Source of the DNA: an uncultured Oscillospiraceae bacterium
Lineage (GTDB): Bacteria > Bacillota > Clostridia > Oscillospirales > Acutalibacteraceae
Length of the DNA stretch: 64,000 nucleotides
Reading direction: 5' to 3'
Assembly (NCBI GenBank): GCA_900541905.1
Contig: UQLQ01000001.1
Location: 19,759 to 83,758, forward strand
The notes under the pieces were generated by a model. It was not told the DNA's origin. It saw only the letters and a list, made by a program, of their open reading frames with translations, and did no database searches. The position numbers and the translations under genes are program-made. This document shows positions 426-57,207 of the stretch, in pieces (positions within the stretch are counted from its first letter, which is position 1; every line of letters starts with the position of its first letter).

Positions 426-3035
426 ATGAAGCAAAAATTTCAAGTAACAGGTATGACTTGCTCTGCATGCTCTTCTACAGTAGAACGAAATGTAAAAAAG
501 CTGGAGGGCGTAAAAGAAGTCACTGTGAATCTTTTGTCAAATTCCATGGTTGTTTCTTATGATGAAGACAAAGTAAATAACCAAACAATTATAGACACAG
601 TGGTAAAAGCCGGGTATCAAGCTGCTTTAGAGCAAAAAAATAGTCAGAAAAAAACATCTGCCACACCGGCAGTTTCACCTGTGGAACAAGATATTAAAAA
701 TATGAAATTCAGATTGATTTTATCTTTTGTGTTTTTAATACCGCTGATGTATATTTCTATGGGGCATATGTTTGGTGCTCCATTACCCAATTTTTTGACA
801 GGTAATGAAAATGCATTGTCATTTGCTTTGACTCAATTTTTGTTAACATTGCCTGTTGTTTATGTAAACCGCAAATACTTTCAAGCAGGTTTTAAAAATT
901 TAGTAAAGCTTCATCCAAATATGGATTCCTTAATTGCAATTGGTTCTTCTGCCGCTTTGATTTACGGTGTATTTGCAATTTATCAAATAGGAATCGGATT
1001 GGGTTATCAAGATATGGAAACGGTTCATCACTATACCATGGATTTGTATTTTGAATCTTCCGCAATGATATTGGCTTTAATTACGCTTGGTAAATTTTTA
1101 GAAACAAAATCAAAAGGCAAAACTTCAGAGGCAATTACAAAGTTATTGCATTTGGCACCAAAAACAGCAACGGTCATTCGTAACGGAGAAGAGCAGGAGA
1201 TTCCTGTGGAAGAAGTTGTGGTAGGGGATCGTATTGTGATTAAACCCGGACAGAGCATTCCCGTTGACGGCGTCATCATAGAGGGCAGTTCTTCCGTTGA
1301 CCAATCTGCCTTAACAGGTGAAAGTATCCCTGTGGAAAAAAATGTTGGAGATAAAGTCATTGCCGCATCTGTCAATAAAATGGGCTCTTTCCATATGGAG
1401 GCCCAAAAGGTTGGAGATGATACCACGTTGGCTCAAATTATCCAATTGGTCGAGGATGCAAATGCATCCAAAGCTCCCATTGCTAAATTAGCAGATAAAA
1501 TCAGCGGTATTTTTGTTCCCGTGGTCATTACCATTGCCGTAATTGCTACCATTGTATGGCTGATTTTGGGGTATCCGTTTGAGTTTGCACTTTCTATCGG
1601 TATTGCCGTATTGGTCATCTCTTGTCCGTGTGCACTTGGTTTGGCTACACCTGTAGCGATTATGGTGGGAACAGGAAAAGGTGCGGAGTATGGTATTTTA
1701 ATTAAATCAGCAGAAGCTTTGGAAGTGGCTCATAGTGTGAAAACGGTTGTACTGGATAAGACGGGTACCATTACAGAAGGAAAACCCAAGGTAACGGACA
1801 TTGTACCTTCAGAGCATATATCCGAACAAGAATTATTGTCTGTGGCGGCTTCTATGGAAAAACCGTCCGAACATCCATTGGCGGATGCAATTGTAGCATA
1901 TGCACAAGAGAAAAAAGTGAGTTTACTCCCAACAGAGCATTTTAAAGCAGTGTCAGGTCAAGGGATTACTGCTTCTATAAATGGAACCGAGTATTATGCA
2001 GGCAATATTTCTTTTATCAGCCAATATGTAGATGTGGAAAACTTTGAAGAACTCAGCAACACATTTGCCGATCAAGGGAAGACGCCGCTTTATTTTGCAG
2101 ACAGCAATCATATCTTAGGTGTAATTGCTGTAGCAGATGTAGTAAAGCCGACCAGTGCAGAGGCGATTTCACAACTGAAAGATATGCACATTGATGTTGT
2201 CATGTTAACAGGCGACCATAAGAAAACCGCGCAGGCCATTCAAAAACAGCTGGGAATTGACCGAGTGGTAGCAGAGGTATTGCCTCAAGATAAGGAACGA
2301 GAAATACGCACATTGCAGGAAGGCGGACACAAAGTTGCCATGGTTGGGGATGGTATCAATGACGCTCCGGCACTTGCAAGAGCAGACGTTGGTATTGCAA
2401 TCGGCGCAGGTACGGATATTGCGATTGAATCGGCTGATATTGTGTTGATGAAAAACAGCTTATTGGATGTAGTAACAGCAATCCGTTTAAGTAAAGCAAC
2501 CATTCGTAATATTAAAGAGAATTTATTCTGGGCCTTTTTCTATAACAGCATTGGAATTCCGTTGGCTGCGGGTGTATTTTTCTCTTTGCTTGGCTGGAAA
2601 TTGAATCCTATGTTTGGGGCTGCGGCAATGAGCTTGAGCTCCGTATGTGTTGTACTAAATGCATTGAGACTGAAATTCTTCAAACCACGCCAGATGGCGA
2701 GCGTACCAGAGAATTTGCAATGCAATACAGAAACATGTCCTATTCAAACGGTGACAGAACAGTCGGATTCTCCGATTGTTTCACAAATAGAAAATAATCA
2801 GAAAAAAGATGAAGGAGAGAAACAAGTTATGACAAAAATTATGAACATTAATGGTATGAGCTGCGGGCATTGTAAAGCAACCGTAGAAAAAATTTTAAAT
2901 GGATTTGACGGTGTACATGCAACTGTAGATTTGGATAAGAAATGCGCAGTGATGGAAGTAAGCGGACCAATTGATGAAAAAGCGATGATGGATGCAGTGA
3001 ATGAGGCTGGTTTTGAGGCCGTTTCTGTGGAATAA
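426..3035 (+). CDS. copA: Copper-translocating P1B-type ATPase with N- and C-terminal heavy-metal-associated domains
   Basis: N-terminal MTCSAC HMA motif, CPC transmembrane motif, DKTGT phosphorylation site, GDGINDAP hinge, and a second C-terminal HMA domain with GMSCGHC. 869 aa. Confidence 0.93.
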   Translation: MKQKFQVTGMTCSACSSTVERNVKKLEGVKEVTVNLLSNSMVVSYDEDKVNNQTIIDTVVKAGYQAALEQKNSQKKTSATPAVSPVEQDIKNMKFRLILSFVFLIPLMYISMGHMFGAPLPNFLTGNENALSFALTQFLLTLPVVYVNRKYFQAGFKNLVKLHPNMDSLIAIGSSAALIYGVFAIYQIGIGLGYQDMETVHHYTMDLYFESSAMILALITLGKFLETKSKGKTSEAITKLLHLAPKTATVIRNGEEQEIPVEEVVVGDRIVIKPGQSIPVDGVIIEGSSSVDQSALTGESIPVEKNVGDKVIAASVNKMGSFHMEAQKVGDDTTLAQIIQLVEDANASKAPIAKLADKISGIFVPVVITIAVIATIVWLILGYPFEFALSIGIAVLVISCPCALGLATPVAIMVGTGKGAEYGILIKSAEALEVAHSVKTVVLDKTGTITEGKPKVTDIVPSEHISEQELLSVAASMEKPSEHPLADAIVAYAQEKKVSLLPTEHFKAVSGQGITASINGTEYYAGNISFISQYVDVENFEELSNTFADQGKTPLYFADSNHILGVIAVADVVKPTSAEAISQLKDMHIDVVMLTGDHKKTAQAIQKQLGIDRVVAEVLPQDKEREIRTLQEGGHKVAMVGDGINDAPALARADVGIAIGAGTDIAIESADIVLMKNSLLDVVTAIRLSKATIRNIKENLFWAFFYNSIGIPLAAGVFFSLLGWKLNPMFGAAAMSLSSVCVVLNALRLKFFKPRQMASVPENLQCNTETCPIQTVTEQSDSPIVSQIENNQKKDEGEKQVMTKIMNINGMSCGHCKATVEKILNGFDGVHATVDLDKKCAVMEVSGPIDEKAMMDAVNEAGFEAVSVE

Positions 3036-7075: not shown

Positions 7076-7193
7076 TTATTGAAACAGTTATGATATGTGA
7101 ATTGGGAATATAATTTCACAAAATATTTCCATAAGGTACTTGCTTGTGACGCGGCGTAATGTTTTATACTATAACAAAGAGGTGATTTCAAAT

Positions 7194-7994
7194 ATGAAGA
7201 AAAATAAGGCGATTCCTCAGGGATACATGACAGTAGGAGAAGTTGCCAAGAAAATGAACGTTTCTGTACGCACCTTGCAGTATTACGATAAAGAAGGTTT
7301 ATTTACGCCATCGGCAGAGAGCGAGGGGGGACGGCGGCTGTATACAGATAAGGATATGATTCAGCTGCACCAAATATTGTCTTTAAAACATTTGGGTTTT
7401 TCATTGGGGGATATTAAAAATCGTTTGATATCTCTTGATACTCCGGATGAAGTTGCGCGAGTCCTCTCAGAACAAGCGGCAGTTGTACGAGATAAAATTG
7501 AATGTTTATCTCAGTCTTTAAAAGAGCTGGAAGCCCTGAAAGAAGAAGTGCTTCAAATGCAATCGGTCAATTTTAAAAAATATGCGGATATTATTGTGAA
7601 TCTGCAAATGAAAAATGATTTTTATTGGCTCATCAAACATTTTGACGATACAATGCTTGACCACATACGCAATCGTTTTGATAAGGAAAGCGGGCTTACA
7701 TTTATCAAACACTTTACAAAATTGCAAGATAAAGTATTGCAGTATCAAAAAGAACAGGTGTCTCCCGAAAGTGAAAAAGGGCAGCAGATTGCAAAAGAAT
7801 TTTGGGGAATGATTGTGGAATTTACAAACGGAGATATGAGTATGCTGCCGCAGTTGATGGATTTTGGAACTGTGGAGGACCCAAATGAACAATGGCAGAA
7901 AAAACAAATGGCTGTGAATGCTTTTATGGAACCTGCTTTAGAGATTTATTTTAAGAATTTGGGTATCAATCCGTTTCAGGGGGAACAGCCGTGA
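7194..7994 (+). CDS. MerR-family transcriptional regulator with a TipAS/Mta-like C-terminal effector domain
   Basis: N-terminal MerR helix-turn-helix (MTVGEVAKKMNVSVRTLQYYDKEGLF). The roughly 190 aa C-terminal domain contains an FTNGD...LPQL motif resembling TipAS/Mta drug-binding domains. Confidence 0.7.
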   Translation: MKKNKAIPQGYMTVGEVAKKMNVSVRTLQYYDKEGLFTPSAESEGGRRLYTDKDMIQLHQILSLKHLGFSLGDIKNRLISLDTPDEVARVLSEQAAVVRDKIECLSQSLKELEALKEEVLQMQSVNFKKYADIIVNLQMKNDFYWLIKHFDDTMLDHIRNRFDKESGLTFIKHFTKLQDKVLQYQKEQVSPESEKGQQIAKEFWGMIVEFTNGDMSMLPQLMDFGTVEDPNEQWQKKQMAVNAFMEPALEIYFKNLGINPFQGEQP

Positions 7995-8806
7995 GCCATG
8001 CAATTGAAATTTGCGGATTACAAAAATCTTACGGGAATCATATTGTCTTACATGATGTCTCTTTCTGTATCTTGCGGGGGGAAATTTTTGGATTATTGGG
8101 TGTAAACGGTTCAGGGAAAACCACAGCATTGGAATGTATCGAAGGATTGCGCAGATATGACAAAGGCTGCATTACAGTAAACGGTAAAATAGGTATTCAA
8201 CTTCAGTCGGCTTCTTTGCCTGCGCATATCAAGACCATGGAAGCACTTCAACTGGCTGCAAAGTGGAATCATGCAGATATAGATGATGAAATAATTGGGG
8301 TACTTGGTATTGAACAATTAGCAAAAAAACAATATATGGAATTATCCACCGGACAAAAACGAAGATTGCATCTTGCACTGGCTTTGGTCGGCCAGCCTGA
8401 AATCCTTTTTTTGGACGAACCAACAGCAGGATTAGATGTGCAAGGAAGAATCTCACTGCATCACCAAATACGAACACTGAAAGAGCAGGGAAAGACAATC
8501 ATATTAGCCAGCCACGATATGGCGGAAGTGGAAAGTTTGTGTGACCGTATTGCTATTTTACATGAAGGAAGGATTGCCTTTTGCGGCACGGTAGAACAAC
8601 TGACAGAAAAAATAGAAAAGCGTTATCATCTTTTCATAAAAACCAGTCAAGGCGACCAAACCTTTGTGGTTGATAATATAGGGGATGCCCTAATCGCCCT
8701 ATTGGAGGAGTACCGTCAAAAAGGTATTACCATACTGGATATTCAAATAGACAGAGGAACATTGGAGCAGCACTTTATCCAATTTGTAAAGGGAGATGGA
8801 AAATGA
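7991..8806 (+). CDS. ABC transporter ATP-binding protein
   Basis: Walker A GVNGSGKTT, signature LSTGQKRR, Walker B ILFLDEP. A GTG start overlaps the merR stop as GTGA. Confidence 0.85.
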   Translation: MSHAIEICGLQKSYGNHIVLHDVSFCILRGEIFGLLGVNGSGKTTALECIEGLRRYDKGCITVNGKIGIQLQSASLPAHIKTMEALQLAAKWNHADIDDEIIGVLGIEQLAKKQYMELSTGQKRRLHLALALVGQPEILFLDEPTAGLDVQGRISLHHQIRTLKEQGKTIILASHDMAEVESLCDRIAILHEGRIAFCGTVEQLTEKIEKRYHLFIKTSQGDQTFVVDNIGDALIALLEEYRQKGITILDIQIDRGTLEQHFIQFVKGDGK

Positions 8807-9525
8807 AAGCATTGCTATATGGAATTGCATTACAGTGGAAATTGGACATAAGAAGTAAGACGCTGCTGATTACCTGCTATATGGTTCCTCTTTTATTTTT
8901 CGCCATCATGGGAGGAATCTTTACTTCAATTATGCCGGAATCGAAAGATACATTAATCCCCGCTATGACAGTGATGGGGGTATCTATGGGCGCACTGATT
9001 GGTTTACCGCCATCTTTGGTAGAACTATATGGCAGTGATATTAAAAAAGTTTATAAAGCAAACGGTATACCTATCTATTTTGGATTTATCACAACCACTT
9101 TCTCTGCAATGATTCACTTATTGCTCATGTCTGTTATAATATACGCAATTGCTCCGTTTGCATTTGAAGCAAAACTGCCGAATCAATCTGTTTTCTATTT
9201 TATATCGCTGATTATTTTTATTATGGTATCACTCAGCATTGGCAGTATTTTAGGTTTGGTGATGAAAAAGCAAGCAAAAGTCACTATGATTTCTCAATTG
9301 GTCTTTTTGCCCTCTATTATGCTGTCAGGAATTATGTTTCCTATTGAGTTTTTGCCGGATGTGTTAAGATGGATTGGAATGATATTTCCTGCTGCATGGG
9401 GTTATCAATTGATGCTGGATTATGGTTTTGGTTTTCAAAATTTGTGGCCTATGATGATTATCTTTGTCGTAGCAGTTGTGGCTATCTTTCTGGTATTGCG
9501 CAAAATAAAAACAGATGAAACCTAA
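8803..9525 (+). CDS. ABC-2 family transporter permease
   Basis: 240 aa with six predicted transmembrane helices. Its start overlaps the ATPase stop as ATGA. Confidence 0.75.
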   Translation: MKALLYGIALQWKLDIRSKTLLITCYMVPLLFFAIMGGIFTSIMPESKDTLIPAMTVMGVSMGALIGLPPSLVELYGSDIKKVYKANGIPIYFGFITTTFSAMIHLLLMSVIIYAIAPFAFEAKLPNQSVFYFISLIIFIMVSLSIGSILGLVMKKQAKVTMISQLVFLPSIMLSGIMFPIEFLPDVLRWIGMIFPAAWGYQLMLDYGFGFQNLWPMMIIFVVAVVAIFLVLRKIKTDET

Positions 9526-31639: not shown

Positions 31640-31835
31640 ACAAAATGTCATTTTCTTGATACAGAAAATGACATGCAAAAGAAAACTTGAGTGTGCTCAA
31701 GTTTTGTCTTGCATTTCAGTGCCGTAAAATACAAGCAACAGGTCGGTAATCCGGCTGTTACGGTAACGTACTTGCGCGGGATTTTCGCCCAACTTCCCCG
31801 AGAGTTCCTGTTTACAGTATGAAATTGTCTTTTGA
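31640..31835 (-). ncRNA. Cobalamin (adenosylcobalamin) riboswitch with a terminator-type expression platform
   Basis: The minus-strand sequence contains GGGAAGTTGGGCGAAAATCCCGCGCAAG, a core close to the GGGAA..GGTGAAAATCC..GC consensus, and the B12-box-like GGCACTG. Two hairpin plus U-tract terminators follow (plus-strand coordinates 31682-31705 and 31646-31673), then an AAGGAG RBS and the cbiD ATG. Confidence 0.75.
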
Positions 31836-43329: not shown

Positions 43330-43504
43330 ACCACAACCCCATTTAGAATTTTGTTCTTTGTTTAATATATGTCCTAAATTGCGGGAAAATGAAACAAGCA
43401 TATATCTCTATTTTTATTTTTTATCATTCGGAATACGAAATGTCTTGAAATACCATTAACATTGTTGCATAATAGGTTTATTACAGGGACAGGAGGAATT
43501 TATC

Positions 43505-43936
43505 ATGTGGATTTCTACAAGAGGAAGATACGCCTTACGTGTTATGGTTGATCTTGCAGAAAATAACAATGGTGAATATATTCCTTTAAAGGATATTGCA
43601 AAACGACAGGAAATTTCAGAGAAATATCTTGAAAGTATTATGGTGACTATGAGCAAAGCGGGAATTATCAAAGGATTGCGGGGAAAAGGCGGAGGGTATA
43701 AGTTAGCACTTGACCCAATGGATATTACGGTAGGGCGTATTTTAAAAGTGACGGAAAAATCTTTGGCACCCGTATCTTGTTTAGAGATGCAGCCCAACCC
43801 GTGCAAGCGGTCTCCTGCTTGTAAAACGGTGCGCGTTTGGCAGGAAATGTACAGAGTGGTAGATGAATATATAGAAAGTGTTACCATTGCTGACTTGGTG
43901 GATGAAATAGACAGCAGCGATTTTTATGTGATATAA
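43505..43936 (+). CDS. Rrf2-family transcriptional regulator with three Cys (probable Fe-S type)
   Basis: N-terminal Rrf2 wHTH (MWISTRGRYALRVMVDLAEN). Cys residues lie in ...SCLEMQPNPCKRSPACK. Confidence 0.8.
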   Translation: MWISTRGRYALRVMVDLAENNNGEYIPLKDIAKRQEISEKYLESIMVTMSKAGIIKGLRGKGGGYKLALDPMDITVGRILKVTEKSLAPVSCLEMQPNPCKRSPACKTVRVWQEMYRVVDEYIESVTIADLVDEIDSSDFYVI

Positions 43937-43937
43937 G

Positions 43938-43985
43938 GTAAAACCATACCGAACATTTTGTTTGGCATGGTTTTTATTTTTTACG
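43938..43985 (+). terminator. Probable rho-independent terminator after rrf2
   Basis: An imperfect hairpin (accatacc...ggcatggt) followed by TTTTTATTTTTT. Confidence 0.55.
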
Positions 43986-44027
43986 TGTATTCGGACATTT
44001 GCATATTGTCAGGCTGATTTTAGGTAA

Positions 44028-44049
44028 AACCTATAACAAGTTATAGGTT
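44028..44049. promoter_or_regulatory. Perfect palindrome AACCTATAAC-aa-GTTATAGGTT abutting the putative -35 of cooS
   Basis: 10 bp perfect inverted arms. The same half-site (GTTATAGGTT / AACCTAT) recurs at 78-107 and at 43472-43478. Confidence 0.5.
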
Positions 44050-44139
44050 ATTGATATTAGACAAATGATGTTTTATGTAGTAAAATATACAACAACCAAT
44101 AAACATACTAACATAGTATGTAAATAGGAGTGAAAATGA

Positions 44140-46131
44140 ATGTCTGATCAACACACACACAGTCATCACCATCATCATGGAGGGATTGATGACTACATGA
44201 AAGCAGTAGCGGAATACAGAAAAACATTCCCGAACAAACAAGATGTCATCGAACAAACACCTGACCCTGCGGTAAGAGAAATGCTTTTACATATGGAAGA
44301 AATGGGTCTTGAAACAACGTTTGACCGTTTTGATGCGCAGCAGCCTCAATGTACGTTTGGTATTGCAGGTACCTGCTGTAAAAACTGCTTTATGGGACCT
44401 TGCAAAATTACAAAAAAATCCCCTCGTGGCGTGTGTGGCGCGGACGCAGATTTAATTGCGGCCAGAAATCTTTTGCGTCATGTGGCAGCAGGTACAGCAG
44501 CCCACGGAGCACGCGGACGTGAAAGTATGCTCGCATTAAAATTTGCAGCACAAGGAAAAGCTCCGATTCCCATTGAAGGAAAAGAAAAAATTTATGCCGT
44601 ATGTAAAAATTTTGGCATTGAGACAGAAGGAAAAACACTCAATGAGCTTGCAGAACAAGTTGCGGATATTTTATTGGAAGATTTATCTCGAACAGTTCCC
44701 GATAAGCACAAAACCATTTATTCCTTCGCGCCGAAAGAAAGGGTGGAAACATGGGAACAATTGGGTATTATTCCAATCAGCCCTTCCCATGAAGTGTTTG
44801 AAAGCTTACACAGAACTACAACAGGCACGGACAGTAACTGGAGAAACGTAATGCAACAGTTTTTAAGAACCGGCGTATCTTTCGCTTGGTCCTCCTGCCT
44901 TGGTTCTTCCATTGCAATGGATAGCTTGTATGGCTTGCCTCACAGAAGTCGTTCCAAGATTAATTTGGGCGCTTTGAAAAAAGGATATGTCAATATTGCG
45001 GTACATGGACATTCTCCCGTACTGGTAAGTGAAATTGTGAAAGTTGGAAGAAGCGAGAAAATGGTGCGGTTGGCCAAAGAAAAAGGCGCTTTGGGTATTC
45101 AGTTTTACGGCATCTGCTGCTCCGGTTTGTCTGCAATGTATCGTTATGATAATGTAATTCCGCTATCCAATGCAGTTGGTTCTGAATTGGTGCTTGGAAC
45201 AGGCGCTTTGGATTTATGGGTTGCAGATGTGCAAGATGTGTTCCCTTCCATAATGGAAGTAGCAAAATGTTTCCGAACAACCGTGGTTACCACCAGTGAT
45301 TCCGGAAGACTGCCTGGTGCAGAACACTACGGACTGGACCATGAGCATTCCAATATAGGAGAAATTCATCAAATTGCAGAAAAAATTGTACAACGTGGTA
45401 TTGAAAGCTTTGTGGAAAGAAGAGACATTCCTGTTAAAATCCCTCAATATGAAGTGGACGCTGAAATGGGATTTTCCGTGGAATGGGCACAGCACTACTT
45501 TGAAAAAGGGCTTGCAACTTTAGCACAGGCATTAAAAGACGGAAAAATATTGGGTATTGTGAACTTGGTAGGCTGCAGCAATCCACGGGTCATTTATGAA
45601 AAGAAAATTGTGGAGACAGCTGAAATACTGTTGAAAAACAATGTGTTGATTTTTACAAATGGTTGTGCGTCATTTGCTTTGCTGAAGCTGGGATTTTGCT
45701 CAGAGAAAGCTTTGGAGTGGACCAGCGAATCACTGCGGGAGTTTTTAAAAGAGATTCCTCCCGTCTGGCATCTCGGCGAATGTTTGGATAATGCAAGAGC
45801 GTCTGCCTTTTTCAACGGAATATCCGCAGCTTTAAATATTCCGATAAAAGAGCTGCCGTATGCCTTTTCCAGTCCTGAGTGGAGCAATGAAAAGGGAATT
45901 TGTGCGGCCTTATCTTTCAGATTATTAGGGATTAATTCTTACCACAATGTTTATGCGCCTGTTATGGGTTCGGAAAAAGTGTCTGAATTTATGGCACATG
46001 GCACAAAGGCGCTATTGGGCTCTGAAATGATTGTAGATGTCGACCATATTAAAATTGCCAACCAACTGGTAGAAGATTTCAAAGAAAAACGCAAAGCGTT
46101 AGGTTGGACTGTATCGTTAGGAGGAGAATGA
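44140..46131 (+). CDS. cooS: Anaerobic Ni-dependent carbon monoxide dehydrogenase catalytic subunit with a His-rich N-terminal tail
   Basis: The cluster-B/D ligand pattern PQC-x7-CC-x2-C-x4-C...CG matches CooS (QCGFGETGLCCRHCLQGPC). The NIAVHGHSPVL motif is present. The N-terminus HTHSHHHHHGG is His-rich. Confidence 0.85.
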   Translation: MSDQHTHSHHHHHGGIDDYMKAVAEYRKTFPNKQDVIEQTPDPAVREMLLHMEEMGLETTFDRFDAQQPQCTFGIAGTCCKNCFMGPCKITKKSPRGVCGADADLIAARNLLRHVAAGTAAHGARGRESMLALKFAAQGKAPIPIEGKEKIYAVCKNFGIETEGKTLNELAEQVADILLEDLSRTVPDKHKTIYSFAPKERVETWEQLGIIPISPSHEVFESLHRTTTGTDSNWRNVMQQFLRTGVSFAWSSCLGSSIAMDSLYGLPHRSRSKINLGALKKGYVNIAVHGHSPVLVSEIVKVGRSEKMVRLAKEKGALGIQFYGICCSGLSAMYRYDNVIPLSNAVGSELVLGTGALDLWVADVQDVFPSIMEVAKCFRTTVVTTSDSGRLPGAEHYGLDHEHSNIGEIHQIAEKIVQRGIESFVERRDIPVKIPQYEVDAEMGFSVEWAQHYFEKGLATLAQALKDGKILGIVNLVGCSNPRVIYEKKIVETAEILLKNNVLIFTNGCASFALLKLGFCSEKALEWTSESLREFLKEIPPVWHLGECLDNARASAFFNGISAALNIPIKELPYAFSSPEWSNEKGICAALSFRLLGINSYHNVYAPVMGSEKVSEFMAHGTKALLGSEMIVDVDHIKIANQLVEDFKEKRKALGWTVSLGGE

Positions 46132-46134
46132 GAA

Positions 46135-47073
46135 ATGAAATTAAAAAAATTTTTCATACCGATTGCGGCGGTGTTGGCTAGTATGACTGTATTATTAACC
46201 GCATGCGGAACATCATCTGGAGGAGGTTCCGACAGTGAAAATGTAAAAACAGTAAAAATAGCATATTTACCTATTACACATGCACTGCCTGTATATGAAC
46301 TTTCCCAGTCAGACAATGTTAAAGTAGAACTTGTCAAATACGGTTCATGGCCGGAGCTGATGGATGCGTTGAATTCCGGTCAGGTAGACGGTGCATCTGT
46401 GCTGATTGAATTGGCAATGCAGGCGCAATCACAAAATATAGGATTAAAAGCAGCTGCACTTGGGCATACAAGCGGCAATGTAATTGTTGTAGGCAATGAC
46501 ATTCAGTCGGCTGCGGATTTAAAAGGAAAAACATTTGCAATTCCGCACAGAAGCTCTTCTCACAATATTTTATTACAGGAGATGCTGGAACAAAATGGTC
46601 TTACCATAGACGATGTTCAGGTAACCGAATTATCTCCTGCGGAAATGCCTTCTGCATTGGTATCCGGTCAGATTCAAGGATATTGTGTGGCAGAACCGTT
46701 TGGTTCTGTAGCGGTAACAGGCGGATATGGTAAAGTGTTATATCAATCGGATGAGTTGTGGGATCATTCCATTTGCTGCGCTCTTGTTTTTAACGATAAA
46801 TTCCTCAATGAAAACAGCGAGTTGGCAAATCAGGTCATCGACGCATATCAACAAGCCGGCTCTGAACTTTCAGATAAAGAAGAGGCGCTTTCTGTGGCGA
46901 AAAATTTCTTGAAACAACCTGATAATGTGCTGCAGCAATCTTTGGAATGGATTGATTTTTCAGATTTGACCATTGAGGAATCTGCTTATCATGATTTGGT
47001 TGCTCGTATGCAAAAATATCACATTTCCGAAAATCCGCCTTCTTATGAAGAGTTTGTATACCAAGCGGAATAG
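46135..47073 (+). CDS. ABC transporter substrate-binding lipoprotein, NitT/TauT (SsuA/NMT1-like) family
   Basis: Signal peptide with lipobox LLTAC. It starts 4 nt after the cooS stop. Confidence 0.75.
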   Translation: MKLKKFFIPIAAVLASMTVLLTACGTSSGGGSDSENVKTVKIAYLPITHALPVYELSQSDNVKVELVKYGSWPELMDALNSGQVDGASVLIELAMQAQSQNIGLKAAALGHTSGNVIVVGNDIQSAADLKGKTFAIPHRSSSHNILLQEMLEQNGLTIDDVQVTELSPAEMPSALVSGQIQGYCVAEPFGSVAVTGGYGKVLYQSDELWDHSICCALVFNDKFLNENSELANQVIDAYQQAGSELSDKEEALSVAKNFLKQPDNVLQQSLEWIDFSDLTIEESAYHDLVARMQKYHISENPPSYEEFVYQAE

Positions 47074-47082
47074 GAGTCAGTT

Positions 47083-47841
47083 ATGAAACGTCTGTTAAAA
47101 TTAAGGTATATTGTGGTTTCGTTTTCAGTGTTAATTTTACTGTGGTATCTTCTTGCCAGTGTGTCGTCTGTTGGAGAAGCACTTTTTCCAAAACCGTTAA
47201 CGGTTGGAAAAGCATTGGTCGATTTATTTGCAGACGGTACTATGGGCGCCAATATAGGAGCCAGCTTATATCGTTTTGCAATTGGTTATGTCACGTCGGT
47301 TGTTTCAGCAGCTATCTTAGGTTTGATAATAGGATGGTTTAAACCGTTATACGGATATATCAGTCCTATTCTACAAATCATTCGTCCGATTGCTCCAGTG
47401 GCTTGGATGCCCTTTATTGTGCTGTTTATTGGCATTGGAGACGTTCCCGCAATTGTTATCATTTTTCTTGCAGGCTTTTTCCCTGTCTTACTTTCTACCA
47501 TTTCTGCTGTACGTAATATAGACCCTGTTTATTTAAAGGTAGCAAAGAATTTTGGAATTAAGCAGCCTGCGGTATTATATAAAATTGTATTTCCCGCGGT
47601 ATTCCCGCAAATTGCAAACAGTTTGCATGTGGCTTTGGGTTCTGCATGGATATTTTTGGTGTCAGGAGAAATGGTCGGAACCCAGTCAGGGCTTGGTTAT
47701 ATGATTATAGATGCCAGAAATAATTTAAGAATGGATTATTTGCTTGCTGCAATGGTGATGATTGGCGTGATAGGATTTATTTTAGATGCACTCATCGGAA
47801 AATTTGAAAAAACCGTGATGAAAGCATGGGGAAAGGCGTGA
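47083..47841 (+). CDS. ABC transporter permease, NitT/TauT family
   Basis: 252 aa with a BPD_transp_1-type fold. Confidence 0.8.
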   Translation: MKRLLKLRYIVVSFSVLILLWYLLASVSSVGEALFPKPLTVGKALVDLFADGTMGANIGASLYRFAIGYVTSVVSAAILGLIIGWFKPLYGYISPILQIIRPIAPVAWMPFIVLFIGIGDVPAIVIIFLAGFFPVLLSTISAVRNIDPVYLKVAKNFGIKQPAVLYKIVFPAVFPQIANSLHVALGSAWIFLVSGEMVGTQSGLGYMIIDARNNLRMDYLLAAMVMIGVIGFILDALIGKFEKTVMKAWGKA

Positions 47842-47845
47842 CAAT

Positions 47846-48634
47846 ATGTATATCGAAATTCAAGACGCTACCAAAATATATGAGAAGCCCGGTGGATTTC
47901 GCTCTTCCAGAGAAAGCTTTACAGCGCTTGACCACATTTCGCTTCAAATAGAAAAAGGTGAATTTATTTGTTTGCTGGGACCTTCCGGCTGCGGAAAGAC
48001 CACCTTAATGAATTCTATTGCGGGTTTTGAAACATTAACAGAAGGAAGCATTACCATTGATGGTCAAAAAGTAAAGGCGCCTTCCGAAAAATATGTCACA
48101 ATTTTTCAAAATTATGGTCTTCTCCCTTGGCGAACGGTTGAAAAAAATGTAGAATTAGGATTGGAAACCTTAAAGGTTCCAAAACAAGAGCGAAAGCAGA
48201 TTGCTATGAAATATTTGCAGCTGGTTGGCTTGGAGAATTTTGCAAAACGACATCCGGCACAGTTGTCCGGTGGACAGCAGCAGAGAGTAGCAATTGCCAG
48301 AGGTCTTGCAGTTGACCCTGAAATTTTATTTATGGATGAACCGTTTGGAGCCTTGGATGCAATTACGCGTTACAAATTGCAGGATGACCTTTTGCATATT
48401 ACAAAATCTCAAAATAAAACAGTGATTTTTGTAACGCATGATATAGATGAGGCTGTGTTTCTGGCAGATAAAATTGTGGTTATGAGTCCGAATCCGGGTA
48501 GAATAAAGTCTGTTATACCAATTGGGCTGGGGAGTCACCGCGACAGGACCGGAGGAGATTTTCTACAGCTGAGAGACAAGGTTTTCCGTATATTTAATAT
48601 GAAGGAAGAAGACAACACCGAGTATTACATTTAA
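47846..48634 (+). CDS. ABC transporter ATP-binding protein, NitT/TauT family
   Basis: Walker A GPSGCGKTT, signature LSGGQQQR, Walker B ILFMDEP. Confidence 0.88.
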   Translation: MYIEIQDATKIYEKPGGFRSSRESFTALDHISLQIEKGEFICLLGPSGCGKTTLMNSIAGFETLTEGSITIDGQKVKAPSEKYVTIFQNYGLLPWRTVEKNVELGLETLKVPKQERKQIAMKYLQLVGLENFAKRHPAQLSGGQQQRVAIARGLAVDPEILFMDEPFGALDAITRYKLQDDLLHITKSQNKTVIFVTHDIDEAVFLADKIVVMSPNPGRIKSVIPIGLGSHRDRTGGDFLQLRDKVFRIFNMKEEDNTEYYI

Positions 48635-48649
48635 TCACTAGAAAGGGAA

Positions 48650-49567
48650 ATGCTCATGACGCTACTACATTTAAAATATGCGGTCAAGGTTGCAGATGTC
48701 GGTTCCATGAATGAAGCTGCCAAACAATTATTGATATCACAGCCAAGTTTATCTGCAGCAATTCGAGCTTTGGAAGAAGAAACCGGAATTGATATCTTCA
48801 AACGTACCAATAAGGGTGTATATGTGACTGCAGAGGGAAGCGCTTTTTTGGAACATGCAAGATTCATTGTTGCGCAATATGATTATATCGAGCATCAGTA
48901 TGTGCGTGCTCATGAAAAAAAGAAGCGGTTTGCTGTATCTACGCAGCATTATGCTTTTGCGGTAAAAGCGTTTATCAATACAGTCAAACAGTTGAATTTA
49001 AGTGAATATCAAACTGCTATTCGTGAAACCAGAACCGGTGAAATTATGAAAGATGTTTGTGCGTCAAGAAGTGAATTGGGTATTATATATTTAAGTAAAT
49101 CCAATGAAGCTTACATGAAAAAAAGACTGAAAAATGATAATTTAGAGTTTCATTATTTATTTGAGTGCAGTATTTACGCCTATTTATGGCATGAACATCA
49201 GCTAGCTCATAAACCTTCCATCAGTTATCAGGAATTACAGCAGTATCCTTACTTGATATTTGAACAAGGGGAAAACAGTGTTTCTTTTTTATCAGAAGAA
49301 ACGGAAAGCAAATATACGTTTCCTGATGTGATACGAACCAACGACCGCGCAACGATGATGGAATTGATTCGTCAAATTCATGCTTTTACCATCTGCTGCG
49401 GTATTATGGATGATGTTTACAAAAAGCAAGGCTTTATCGCCGTACCGATTGATACAGATGAAACTATGAAAATAGGTTATGTCACGTTAAAAAATGCAAA
49501 ATTATCTCCGGTCAGCGAAGAGTATGTAAGGCAGTTGAAAGTGTTCGGCCAGAATTCCAATGTATAA
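48650..49567 (+). CDS. LysR-family transcriptional regulator
   Basis: N-terminal LysR helix-turn-helix with a substrate-binding domain. 305 aa. Confidence 0.85.
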   Translation: MLMTLLHLKYAVKVADVGSMNEAAKQLLISQPSLSAAIRALEEETGIDIFKRTNKGVYVTAEGSAFLEHARFIVAQYDYIEHQYVRAHEKKKRFAVSTQHYAFAVKAFINTVKQLNLSEYQTAIRETRTGEIMKDVCASRSELGIIYLSKSNEAYMKKRLKNDNLEFHYLFECSIYAYLWHEHQLAHKPSISYQELQQYPYLIFEQGENSVSFLSEETESKYTFPDVIRTNDRATMMELIRQIHAFTICCGIMDDVYKKQGFIAVPIDTDETMKIGYVTLKNAKLSPVSEEYVRQLKVFGQNSNV

Positions 49568-49583
49568 TGTTTGATAACATAAA

Positions 49584-49618
49584 AAACTCCCTTTTCATTT
49601 GAAATAGGGAGTTTTTTG
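49584..49618 (+). terminator. Rho-independent terminator
   Basis: 9 bp stem aaactccct / agggagttt followed by TTTTTT. Confidence 0.85.
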
Positions 49619-56997: not shown

Positions 56998-57207
56998 ATA
57001 CGAGCAAGACTGCACTAGATATGCGTTGAAGCGGGAGGTTGCGGCATTTTATGCTGGTTTTTCCGTGGAGTATGTCCGATTTTAAACCGGGCGAAAGAAT
57101 ATTTGATGTTATGGTAAAGGACCAAAGCGCTCTTTGCGTAAATTGTGTCCTGACGGTTATTACGGCCGATTGTATTTGCCATACTCAGACGCTTTTGTGG
57201 ATCTAAC

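Follow-up and report, generated by a model that had tools for sequence, protein, structure and literature searches.

A group B-1 Ni-CODH-like gene and a NitT/TauT-type importer in a predicted operon of an uncultured Oscillospiraceae bacterium, with substrate import as a possible function

Clade-B carbon monoxide dehydrogenases of the nickel-containing type (Ni-CODHs) are associated, in all groups, with components of NitT/TauT-type ATP-binding cassette (ABC) transporters (Inoue et al. 2019, PMC6344411). In the same work, group B-1 was defined by a type II D-cluster, a C-cluster of the form H-C-(D/E)-C-C-C, retention of a His and a Lys residue, and an N-terminal His-rich region, and it was proposed that nickel is imported and then inserted through the His tail; groups B-2 and B-4 have no His tail and keep the transporter (Inoue et al. 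2019, PMC6344411). "ABC transporter" is one of eight cooS contexts in human gut genomes, and CysK adjoins cooS in Megasphaera (Katayama et al. 2024). ABC-transporter genes are found in 64% of clade-B operons and maturase genes in almost none (Böhm et al., eLife 2026). Here we analysed a cooS gene with an adjoining ABC importer in a 64,000-nt stretch of DNA from an uncultured Oscillospiraceae bacterium (GenBank assembly GCA_900541905.1, contig UQLQ01000001.1, positions 19,759 to 83,758). This whole stretch is called the window below, and coordinates are window positions unless a relative's locus (L001 and so on) is named.

Of this class, RfCODH of Ruminococcus flavefaciens was the first member to be characterised (Böhm et al., Angew. 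Chem. 2026, PMC13592312). It oxidised CO at 13 mU/mg, compared with 280-900 U/mg for Carboxydothermus hydrogenoformans CODH-II (ChCODH-II), i.e., about 10^4-10^5-fold more slowly; NH2OH reduction was weak, CO2, bicarbonate and nitrate were not reduced, and the protein produced in E. coli contained 0.2-0.5 Ni per monomer (PMC13592312). In its structure, Asp415 occupies the Cys333 position, the C-cluster density is poorly defined, the gas channels are blocked, Glu/Leu and Ser/Leu substitutions change the proton path, and the His-rich N-terminus is disordered (PMC13592312). CO and cyanide are bound at the C-cluster (Böhm et al. 2026). In a mirror-tree comparison, CODH correlated with the substrate-binding protein (SBP) at 0.49, compared with 0.14-0.18 for marker genes, and the modelled SBP had a Zn-like site of two Cys and one to two His resembling that of 3UN6 (PMC13592312), a structure from Staphylococcus aureus that contains Zn (Böhm et al. 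2026). The same authors judged the SBP too unlike known Ni-binding SBPs and noted that CO, being freely diffusible, requires no import system (Böhm et al. 2026). Another NitT/TauT-like lipoprotein, SaoX, has cleft cysteines at positions 50, 192, and 224-225, and its cargo was predicted to be a metal or organometal (Haft 2022, 10.1101/2022.07.06.499078).

By its residue pattern, which matches Table 2 of Inoue et al. (2019) and the clade-B logos of Böhm et al. (2026), the window locus is assigned to the published group B-1 of clade-B Ni-CODH/NitT-TauT operons; this placement was made from residue signatures, identity, and operon structure. The protein belongs to the Prismane/CooS family and has a type II D-cluster, four B-cluster Cys, an Asp-containing C-cluster, the equivalents of His93 and Lys563, and a His-rich N-terminus, and NitT/TauT genes (COG0715, COG0600, and COG1116) lie directly downstream of cooS. 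The proton-path signature of clade B (Böhm et al. 2026) is present as well, with Glu/Leu at His99/His102 and Ser at Asn262, and all sequence signatures of the RfCODH class were found. At 68% identity, the protein also resembles those of Ruminiclostridium and Caldicoprobacter, which have the same operon and belong to genera that Inoue et al. name as B-1. An earlier annotation of this DNA (the original prediction) had called the locus "not a textbook arrangement"; as a claim of novelty this fails, because the combination of His tail, Asp C-cluster, and NitT/TauT importer has been published since 2019 and discussed in four papers. The arrangement itself is real and clearly exceeds chance, and its original interpretation was correct in part. 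The locus adds no new class, and its lineage-specific peculiarities are an operon-internal lysR gene, an upstream Fe-S-type rrf2 gene, and two conserved dyads.

All six open reading frames of the original prediction were present, at the coordinates given there, on the + strand. The cooS gene (44140-46131, 663 aa; identified by Pfam Prismane, TIGR01702, and ligand mapping) is followed by genes for an SBP lipoprotein with the NitT/TauT fold and a 3UN6-like sequence (46135-47073, Pfam NMT1_2), an ABC permease (47083-47841, Pfam BPD_transp_1), an ABC ATPase (47846-48634, Pfam ABC_tran), and, as the last gene of the operon, a LysR-type regulator (48650-49567, Pfam HTH_1 and LysR_substrate; gene callers place its start at 48656). 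Upstream lies a gene for a 143-aa Rrf2-family regulator (43505-43936, Pfam Rrf2, 129 bits). Between the last base of the cooS stop codon (46131) and the first of the SBP ATG (46135) there is a spacer of 3 nt, and the ribosome-binding site of the SBP gene, GGAGGAG, sits within the 3' end of cooS; this arrangement supports translational coupling of cooS to a NitT/TauT-type importer. The remaining gaps are 9 nt (SBP-permease), 4 nt (permease-ATPase), and 15 nt (ATPase-lysR), and folding analysis of the last of these gave no hairpin. Predicted intrinsic terminators, each a hairpin with a U-run, were found after rrf2 (43935-43980, +, an inverted repeat; -16.4 kcal/mol, z = -3.9) and after lysR (49580-49618, +; -17.9 kcal/mol, z = -5.4), and in both cases none of 200 shuffled sequences was as stable. 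Because the gaps are only 3-15 nt and terminators follow rrf2 and lysR alone, there are most likely two transcription units, namely rrf2 by itself and cooS-SBP-permease-ATPase-lysR under a single promoter-like site. A consensus scan also predicted a promoter-like site for rrf2, TTGAAA-17-CATAAT (43445-43473, +; 10/12 matches).

The cooS product scored 462 bits with Pfam PF03063 (Prismane) and 500.1 bits with the NCBIfam equivalog TIGR01702, narrowly passing the cut-off of 478, and it matched canonical Ni-CODHs in the PDB over its full length (E = 1e-131 to 1e-101). A hybrid-cluster protein (HCP), the identity that the original prediction had named as fatal to its own assignment, was rejected because no HCP model matched in the profile search, and the assignment to the CooS family held. 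Ligands were mapped to ChCODH-II through PDB alignments (the 7ERR chain carries a 20-residue tag, so that the native number is the chain position minus 20). The D-cluster ligands are C71 and C79 (type II, C-x7-C; aligned to C39/C47 of ChCODH-II), and the B-cluster ligands are C80, C83, C88, and C99 (aligned to C48/51/56/70). Five of the six C-cluster ligands are kept (H289, C327, C479, C509, and C548), whereas the position of Cys333 in ChCODH-II numbering is occupied by Asp366. The acid-base residues H122 and K585 (His93 and Lys563 of ChCODH-II) are present, and the proton relay is altered, with His96 replaced by Arg, His99 by Glu (E128), His102 by Leu (L131), and Asn262 by Ser (S292). The earlier statement that the gene has the full B/D-cluster Cys pattern was thus correct for those two clusters; as only these cysteines had been checked, it missed that Asp replaces Cys333 in the C-cluster, a change by which the enzyme is marked as non-canonical.

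The N-terminus of the protein reads MSDQHTHSHHHHHGG, with a His-rich tail at residues 5-13 that contains 7 His. An AGGAG ribosome-binding site lies 9 nt upstream of the cooS ATG, and a His-rich N-terminus of variable length was seen in each of the 17 aligned homologues; for these reasons the His tract is almost certainly translated. Its proposed role as a nickel-acquisition device gained support as an idea, one that Inoue et al. (2019) had put forward before. Across 18 aligned homologues from several phyla (73-89% identity, mean column identity 74%), Asp366, all cluster ligands, His122, and Lys585 were invariant.

We compared the enzyme with the canonical Ni-CODHs C. hydrogenoformans CODH-II and CODH-IV, R. 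rubrum CooS, and the Thermococcus AM4 enzyme (PDB 1SU8, 6ELQ, 1JQK, and 6T7J). The fold and family, the D- and B-cluster ligands, and five of six C-cluster ligands are the same. In contrast to canonical enzymes (clades E and F), Cys333 is Asp, the proton-relay histidines are replaced, an N-terminal extension is present, and the context contains no CooC, CooF, energy-converting hydrogenase (ECH), or flavin/NAD oxidoreductase (FNOR) genes. With RfCODH and group B-1 the enzyme shares the His-rich tail, the C-x7-C D-cluster, the H-C-D-C-C-C C-cluster, the retained His93 and Lys563, Glu/Leu at His99/His102, Ser at Asn262, a three-His loop (H396, H401, and H403), and the adjoining lipoprotein SBP, permease, and ATPase genes without maturase genes. 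Unlike in R. flavefaciens, where the transporter lies upstream of the CODH gene, it lies downstream of cooS in the window; the His tail is short (7 His, compared with a His-rich region of 35 residues in RfCODH), and the window lineage adds the operon-internal LysR and the upstream Fe-S-type Rrf2.

The SBP has an LTAC lipobox with Cys24. It scored below the cut-offs of all named subfamilies (SsuA_fam, 123.5 vs 163.5; PRK11553, 83.6 vs 299; TauA, 49.6 vs 304), and no NrtA or CmpA model matched. The protein therefore falls into none of the CmpA, NrtA, SsuA, and TauA subfamilies to which the original prediction had looked, its best named NCBIfam family being SsuA_fam at a sub-threshold score. The closest solved relative is S. 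aureus 3UN6 (E = 3.4e-63 over residues 27-309), compared with E = 8e-15 for an SsuA structure and E = 4e-4 for NrtA 2G29. In an alignment of 73 SBPs including 3UN6, H49, H111, C214, and C215 were invariant except for gaps (71/73 or 70/73 sequences) and constitute a putative His2Cys2 metal site; S141 was conserved in 99%, E187 in 97%, and H143 in 65/73. Most CODH-linked SBPs have an additional Cys184 (motif GYCVAEPFG), whereas non-CODH relatives have Val, Ser, or Ala at this position and some have Asp-Cys in place of Cys-Cys. SsuABC, TauABC, NrtABCD, and CmpABCD share the transporter superfamily and the SBP fold with the window importer, with the SBP below each cut-off; to our knowledge, the SsuA, TauA, NrtA, and CmpA proteins have no His2Cys2 site.

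Two other systems resemble the importer more closely in parts. The best NCBIfam match of the permease was SaoP (161.5 bits, cut-off 295); the SBP scored 88.9 bits with SaoX (cut-off 300), and the ATPase 235.8 bits with SaoA (cut-off 360), next to TauB- and NtrCD-like matches that were likewise sub-threshold. Like the window importer, the SaoX/SaoP/SaoA transporter of the SAO system is a NitT/TauT-like trio from anaerobes with a lipoprotein SBP that carries a CC motif and further cleft Cys, and by motif comparison, not alignment, Cys50, Cys192, and Cys224-225 of SaoX appear to correspond to H49, C184, and C214-215 of the SBP. The differences are that all three window proteins lie far below the Sao cut-offs and contain no selenocysteine, and no MerB-like SaoL, SaoB, SaoC, SaoT, or SaoE genes were found near the window cassette. 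The S. aureus system SAUSA300_0174-0177, which includes 3UN6, has a lipoprotein SBP with the same His/His/Cys-Cys positions and the same permease and ATPase types. It differs in its gene order (ATPase-SBP-permease), in its partners (in S. aureus and other Bacillales an acyl-CoA dehydrogenase (ACAD)-like protein, a PF14026 protein, and usually HxlR, with no CODH), and in its SBPs, which have no Cys184. In the literature, the orthologue SAUSA300_0175 was named solely in lipoprotein inventories, as a "putative nitrate" transporter.

Conservation of the locus was assessed by scanning one genome per species. At least 549 species genomes carry a CooS relative, and neighbourhoods were taken from the best 80 loci of 549 relatives. 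The closest relative, at 99% identity, is from a human-gut metagenome-assembled genome (MAG), "uncultured Ruminococcaceae UMGS454". The genes cooS-SBP-permease-ATPase were contiguous and co-directional in about 70 of the 80 loci, most of the others being contigs that end early, and the transporter lay upstream of cooS in 2/80; the pairing of CODH with a NitT/TauT-type importer is thus strongly conserved. The hosts span at least six phyla (Bacillota, Bacteroidota, Lentisphaerota/Victivallales, Eggerthellaceae, Fibrobacterota, Spirochaetia, and Succinivibrio). A Pfam census of 120 immediately flanking genes of the relatives contained no CooC, CooF, AcsB, or FNOR-type families, and in the window no cooC, cooF, acsB, FNOR, or ECH genes were found within 10 kb on either side or in the remaining annotated parts (most of the 64 kb). 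The orphan status of the gene, i.e., the absence of the usual CODH partners, was thereby confirmed for the annotated window and these flanking genes.

The two regulators fared differently. Among the best 80 loci, Rrf2 and LysR stand beside the cassette only in the three nearest relatives, L001-L003, the remaining cases being an unrelated Rrf2 in L090 and scattered LysR genes, and both were rejected as conserved parts of the module. Regulators adjoining the cassettes of relatives were of the LysR, two-component, AraC, and Rrf2 types, none of them a classical metal sensor. The window Rrf2 protein has C92, C100, and C106 where the Fe-S ligands of IscR-type proteins sit; it scored below the IscR (111.7 vs 207.55) and CymR (103.5 vs 195) equivalog cut-offs and passed the superfamily model alone.

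When metagenomes were scanned with the SBP family as seed, 80 loci were obtained (L092-L171). About 45, of the Bacillales type, had the order ATPase-SBP-permease-(HxlR, divergent)-PF14026-ACAD-like (~355 aa), about 21 had cooS-SBP-permease-ATPase, and none had both. The cytoplasmic partners of the transporter family thus come in two alternative sets, which exclude each other in these loci and in L084-L086. The second set was found in S. aureus (SAUSA300_0174-0177), Lederbergia, and Parageobacillus, where the orthologous transporter adjoins a PF14026 protein and an ACAD-like protein of ~350 aa. The HxlR regulator is present at both Bacillaceae loci and absent from the S. aureus locus. For the ACAD-like partner, PDB and NCBIfam searches gave just distant, generic acyl-CoA dehydrogenase matches, and its SfnB/desulfinase matches were very weak and uninterpretable; the PF14026 partner had no PDB relative by sequence. 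Proteins of PF14026 are named "nickel responsive protein SCO4226-like" and score 20 bits on the true SCO4226 equivalog (cut-off 125).

Further clues to the cargo came from the neighbours of the cassette. In four Bacteroidales loci equipped with the ABC system, the gene next after that for the ATPase is CbiM/NikM-like (N-terminus MHIPSE; 132 bits with Pfam CbiM); in Tannerella (L005), which has no ABC genes there, such a gene comes directly after cooS. These genes are solitary in Prevotella/Bacteroidaceae and Tannerella (L004 6528-7415, L042 12244-13131, L009 14442-15155, and L005 2899-3795), with no CbiQ or CbiO gene adjoining them. In seven Prevotellaceae loci (L006-L008, L010, and L012-L014), an ECF-S-like membrane protein of ~170 aa is encoded beside the cassette, joined in six of the seven (not L014) by an FmdE-domain protein of ~180 aa; these genes may correspond to the neighbours of clade-B operons that have been described as "conserved hypothetical". 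In Anaeromicropila herbilytica (L088 4660-5698), a NiCo riboswitch (RF02683, 54.2 bits, gathering threshold 37) precedes a CDF (Cation_efflux) gene that lies directly upstream of cooS in the same direction. Sulfur genes (Cys_Met_Meta_PP enzymes, PatB-type aminotransferase/lyase, RidA, and MetK) lie within two genes of the cassette in 10/80 loci, with a modest near-versus-far enrichment (odds ratio 2.8, p = 0.015) that ignores phylogeny and is a lead rather than a finding. They are mostly co-directional and occur in several unrelated lineages (L057 7019-9747, L076 7027-9795, L054 7958-10297, L078 2332-3492, L008 2613-4016, L090 2984-5903, and L029 8305-9567); in L090, which comes in addition to the ten loci, a PALP enzyme, a Cys_Met_Meta_PP enzyme, and the divergent Rrf2 stand by the cassette.

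Taken as a whole, the locus is best explained by an importer that brings a substrate to a repurposed Ni-Fe-S enzyme, a reading to which we give a probability of roughly 0.5. The enzyme would be a cytoplasmic Ni-Fe-S redox enzyme that is loaded with nickel via its own His tail and that, as was found for its relative RfCODH, oxidises CO very poorly. A solute would be captured by the lipoprotein SBP through its conserved, metal-containing His2Cys2 site (with Cys184) and passed on by the importer to the enzyme, whose real substrate it would be. The cargo would not be CO, bicarbonate, or nitrate, the leading guess being a soft, possibly sulfur-containing or metal-bound ligand. In the window lineage, the operon-encoded LysR would probably sense the solute or its product, and the Fe-S-type Rrf2 would provide a second input. 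That the cargo is not simply nickel for the CODH is suggested by the NikM-like gene found alongside the ABC system and by the CODH-free, flavoprotein-like partner set, and further by the types of the adjoining regulators.

Ranked by probability, substrate import comes before metal supply, and both come before the model of the original prediction, in which a CODH interconverting CO and CO2 is served by a CmpA-, NrtA-, SsuA-, or TauA-like importer of bicarbonate or another oxyanion or sulfonate. For that model speak the CooS equivalog score (500 vs 478 bits), the NitT/TauT superfamily of the transporter with SsuA_fam (123.5 bits) as the best named family of the SBP, and the binding of CO and cyanide by RfCODH at the C-cluster. 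However, the SBP lies under every named subfamily cut-off (NrtA 2G29, E = 4e-4), RfCODH reduces neither CO2 nor bicarbonate nor nitrate and oxidises CO 10^4-10^5-fold more slowly than ChCODH-II, the window enzyme likewise has the Cys333-to-Asp change and the altered proton relay, and freely diffusing CO needs no importer. Contradicted both by the biochemistry of the sole characterised member and by the SBP classification, a CO/CO2-bicarbonate module is very improbable. Hardly better placed is a degenerate or regulatory protein that has lost catalysis and, in association with the transporter, senses redox state, CO, or metal or serves for storage. Such a role would suit the very low activities of RfCODH on all tested substrates and its poorly defined C-cluster density, but the extreme conservation (74% mean column identity in 18 homologues from several phyla, with cluster ligands, His122, and Lys585 invariant) points to strong selection on the catalytic site, and cooS is the first gene of the operon and translationally coupled with the transporter; we regard a degenerate protein as improbable.

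The metal-supply explanation of Inoue et al. (2019) is a more serious competitor, possible although doubtful on balance. It holds that the ABC system imports Ni2+ or another thiophilic metal via the His2Cys2 site of the SBP and that the His tail loads the C-cluster in place of CooC/CooJ/CooT, so that the reaction of the enzyme, CO oxidation or other, is independent of the transporter cargo. H49, H111, C214, and C215 are invariant in the 73 SBPs including 3UN6, which was crystallised with Zn. The SBP is also related to SaoX, part of a system whose predicted role is to transport metals or organometals jointly with an efflux pump. For Ni(II), N2S2 is one of the classical ligand sets. His-rich tails occur in all aligned CooS homologues and maturase genes are missing near the cassette, a NiCo riboswitch (54 bits) with a CDF exporter stands directly upstream of cooS in L088, non-CODH orthologues adjoin the gene for a PF14026 "nickel responsive protein SCO4226-like" protein, with a CDF gene also near in S. 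aureus, and HMA-domain neighbours were found in 2 loci. On the other hand, nickel import by the ABC system would make redundant the NikM/CbiM-like nickel/cobalt uptake gene that accompanies it in four Bacteroidales loci, the transporter family works in Bacillales with an ACAD-like flavoprotein instead of a CODH, groups B-2 and B-4 keep the transporter although they have no His tail, and regulators of the NikR, Fur, or ArsR type do not recur among the 120 flanking genes. The PF14026 proteins reach just 20 bits on the SCO4226 equivalog (cut-off 125), and Böhm et al. find the SBP too unlike known Ni-binding SBPs.

Several points weigh against substrate import to a repurposed enzyme. RfCODH from E. 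coli was just 20-50% Ni-loaded, and its low activity could partly reflect poor maturation. With its invariant His2Cys2 site, which is occupied by Zn in 3UN6, the SBP would suit a cargo that is itself a metal ion, the Bacillales partner family carries the name "nickel responsive", and in Anaeromicropila cooS is directly preceded by the NiCo riboswitch and CDF exporter. Co-transfer of the cassette in one piece can account for the mirror-tree signal, and the cassette was found within a mobile skin-like element (below); because the four genes travel together, this signal does not discriminate between the substrate and metal models. Sulfur genes are modestly enriched (odds ratio 2.8, p = 0.015, phylogeny ignored), and Rfam searches of 26 relatives' loci and the window gave no riboswitch for cooS itself.

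As a more speculative extension of the substrate-import reading, which we hold to be unlikely in its full form, the whole 3UN6-like family may import one soft ligand, such as a thiol, a sulfide-type compound, or a small molecule bound to metal, which the His2Cys2 metal site of the SBP would hold; to process it, anaerobes would use the repurposed clade-B "CODH" and aerobic Bacillales the ACAD-like and PF14026 proteins. If so, non-homologous enzymes would have displaced one another around a common transporter, the clade-B enzyme would act not on CO but as a reductase or lyase that supplies sulfur (Cys/Met) or organometal metabolism, and the operon-encoded LysR of the window would be a ready-made ligand sensor. 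Clade-B CODHs are widespread, occurring in at least 549 species genomes, many from human gut, rumen, and termite gut. They are annotated everywhere as "anaerobic carbon-monoxide dehydrogenase", although the sole characterised member barely oxidises CO, and metabolic reconstructions that take these genes as CO utilisation are probably wrong. Three handles on the substrate are available: the operon-internal LysR, whose co-inducer is likely the cargo or its product; the CODH-free partner set of the same transporter family in genetically tractable Staphylococcus and Bacillus; and the context, which hints at nickel handling and Cys/Met metabolism. The lineage-specific LysR and Rrf2 and the conserved dyads are useful mainly as experimental handles.

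The region upstream of cooS was aligned with those of the two nearest species, L002 and L003 (proteins 86-89% identical). A promoter-like site of the cooS operon, TAGACA-17-TAAAAT (44058-44086, +; 10/12 matches), has both hexamers conserved in L002 and L003. Inverted repeat 1, AACCTATAAC-AA-GTTATAGGTT (44028-44049; 10-nt arms, 2-nt spacer), is a candidate operator; it occurs once in the window, where 0.01 chance matches are expected, its centre lies ~55 nt upstream of the inferred transcription start, and its core CTATAA-N4-TTATAG is retained in L002 and L003. The original prediction had described a perfect 22 bp palindrome abutting the -35 box. The repeat is indeed perfect and unique in the window, but it is a 10-nt repeat with a 2-nt spacer and strictly not a 22-bp palindrome, and it lies 8 nt upstream of the conserved TAGACA site rather than abutting the TTGATA chosen earlier. 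Inverted repeat 2, ACATACTA-ACA-TAGTATGT (44103-44121), lies in the 5' leader, is conserved in L002 and L003, and contains ATAC-N7-GTAT, which we take to be a T-N11-A motif of the kind usual in LysR-type boxes; as RNA, the repeat gives a weak hairpin (z = -1.6). At the Rfam gathering threshold, the window and 26 relatives' loci contained no riboswitch in front of cooS itself, the NiCo riboswitch of L088, which fronts the neighbouring CDF gene and not cooS, being the sole relevant match. The 10-mer AGGTAAAACC occurs twice in the window (43927-43942 and 44021-44036), one copy opening the rrf2 terminator hairpin and the other overlapping the left arm of inverted repeat 1; this duplication may be due to chance.

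Some cassettes of relatives lie in an unusual setting. In L023, L045, L049, and L050, the cassette and a gene for a large serine recombinase (540-556 aa) stand between the halves of a split sigK gene, as in a skin-like element. In Ruminiclostridium papyrosolvens C7 (L049 7542-14856), this element measures ~6.5 kb and the sigK halves are on the opposite strand. A Sigma70_r2 gene flanks the cassette in eight Ruminiclostridium-type loci, at least four of which, on inspection, have the split-sigK layout. The clade-B CODH operon looks like the sole cargo of this sigK-intervening element, and a literature search gave no paper tying a sigK intervening element to carbon monoxide dehydrogenase. The N-terminal half of the split sigK ends ...ARCIENAILT and the C-terminal half begins ...ANEILMQIRASKK; in L026, L027, L040, and L047 the layout is partial or similar. 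In a soil Bacillota MAG, a group II intron domain (RF00029, 51.9 bits, L075 3137-3221) lies in the long intergenic region upstream of cooS.

In the window, the neighbours of the cassette are housekeeping genes, among them those for the shikimate pathway, PepF, a SpoVB-like flippase, PrmA, Dcd, PheA, and ProRS. A large anaerobic cobalamin biosynthesis cluster (9561-32612, -) contains cbiK, cbiD, cbiG, cbiJ, cbiC, methylases, hemA/B/C/D/L-type genes, cobU/S/T/D, and cbiA/cbiP-like genes, and is headed by an AdoCbl-II riboswitch (31737-31812; 36.7 bits vs the gathering threshold of 36.5); its matches to PF01656 (CbiA) are amidotransferases, not CooC. Other features of the window are a P-type ATPase with two HMA domains that is likely a CopA-like heavy-metal exporter (426-3035, +), a MerR-family regulator followed by an ABC-2 type exporter pair (7140-9525, +), and an S10-Clostridia ribosomal-protein leader (57018-57094, +; 51.9 bits) ahead of an apparent S10 ribosomal protein operon.

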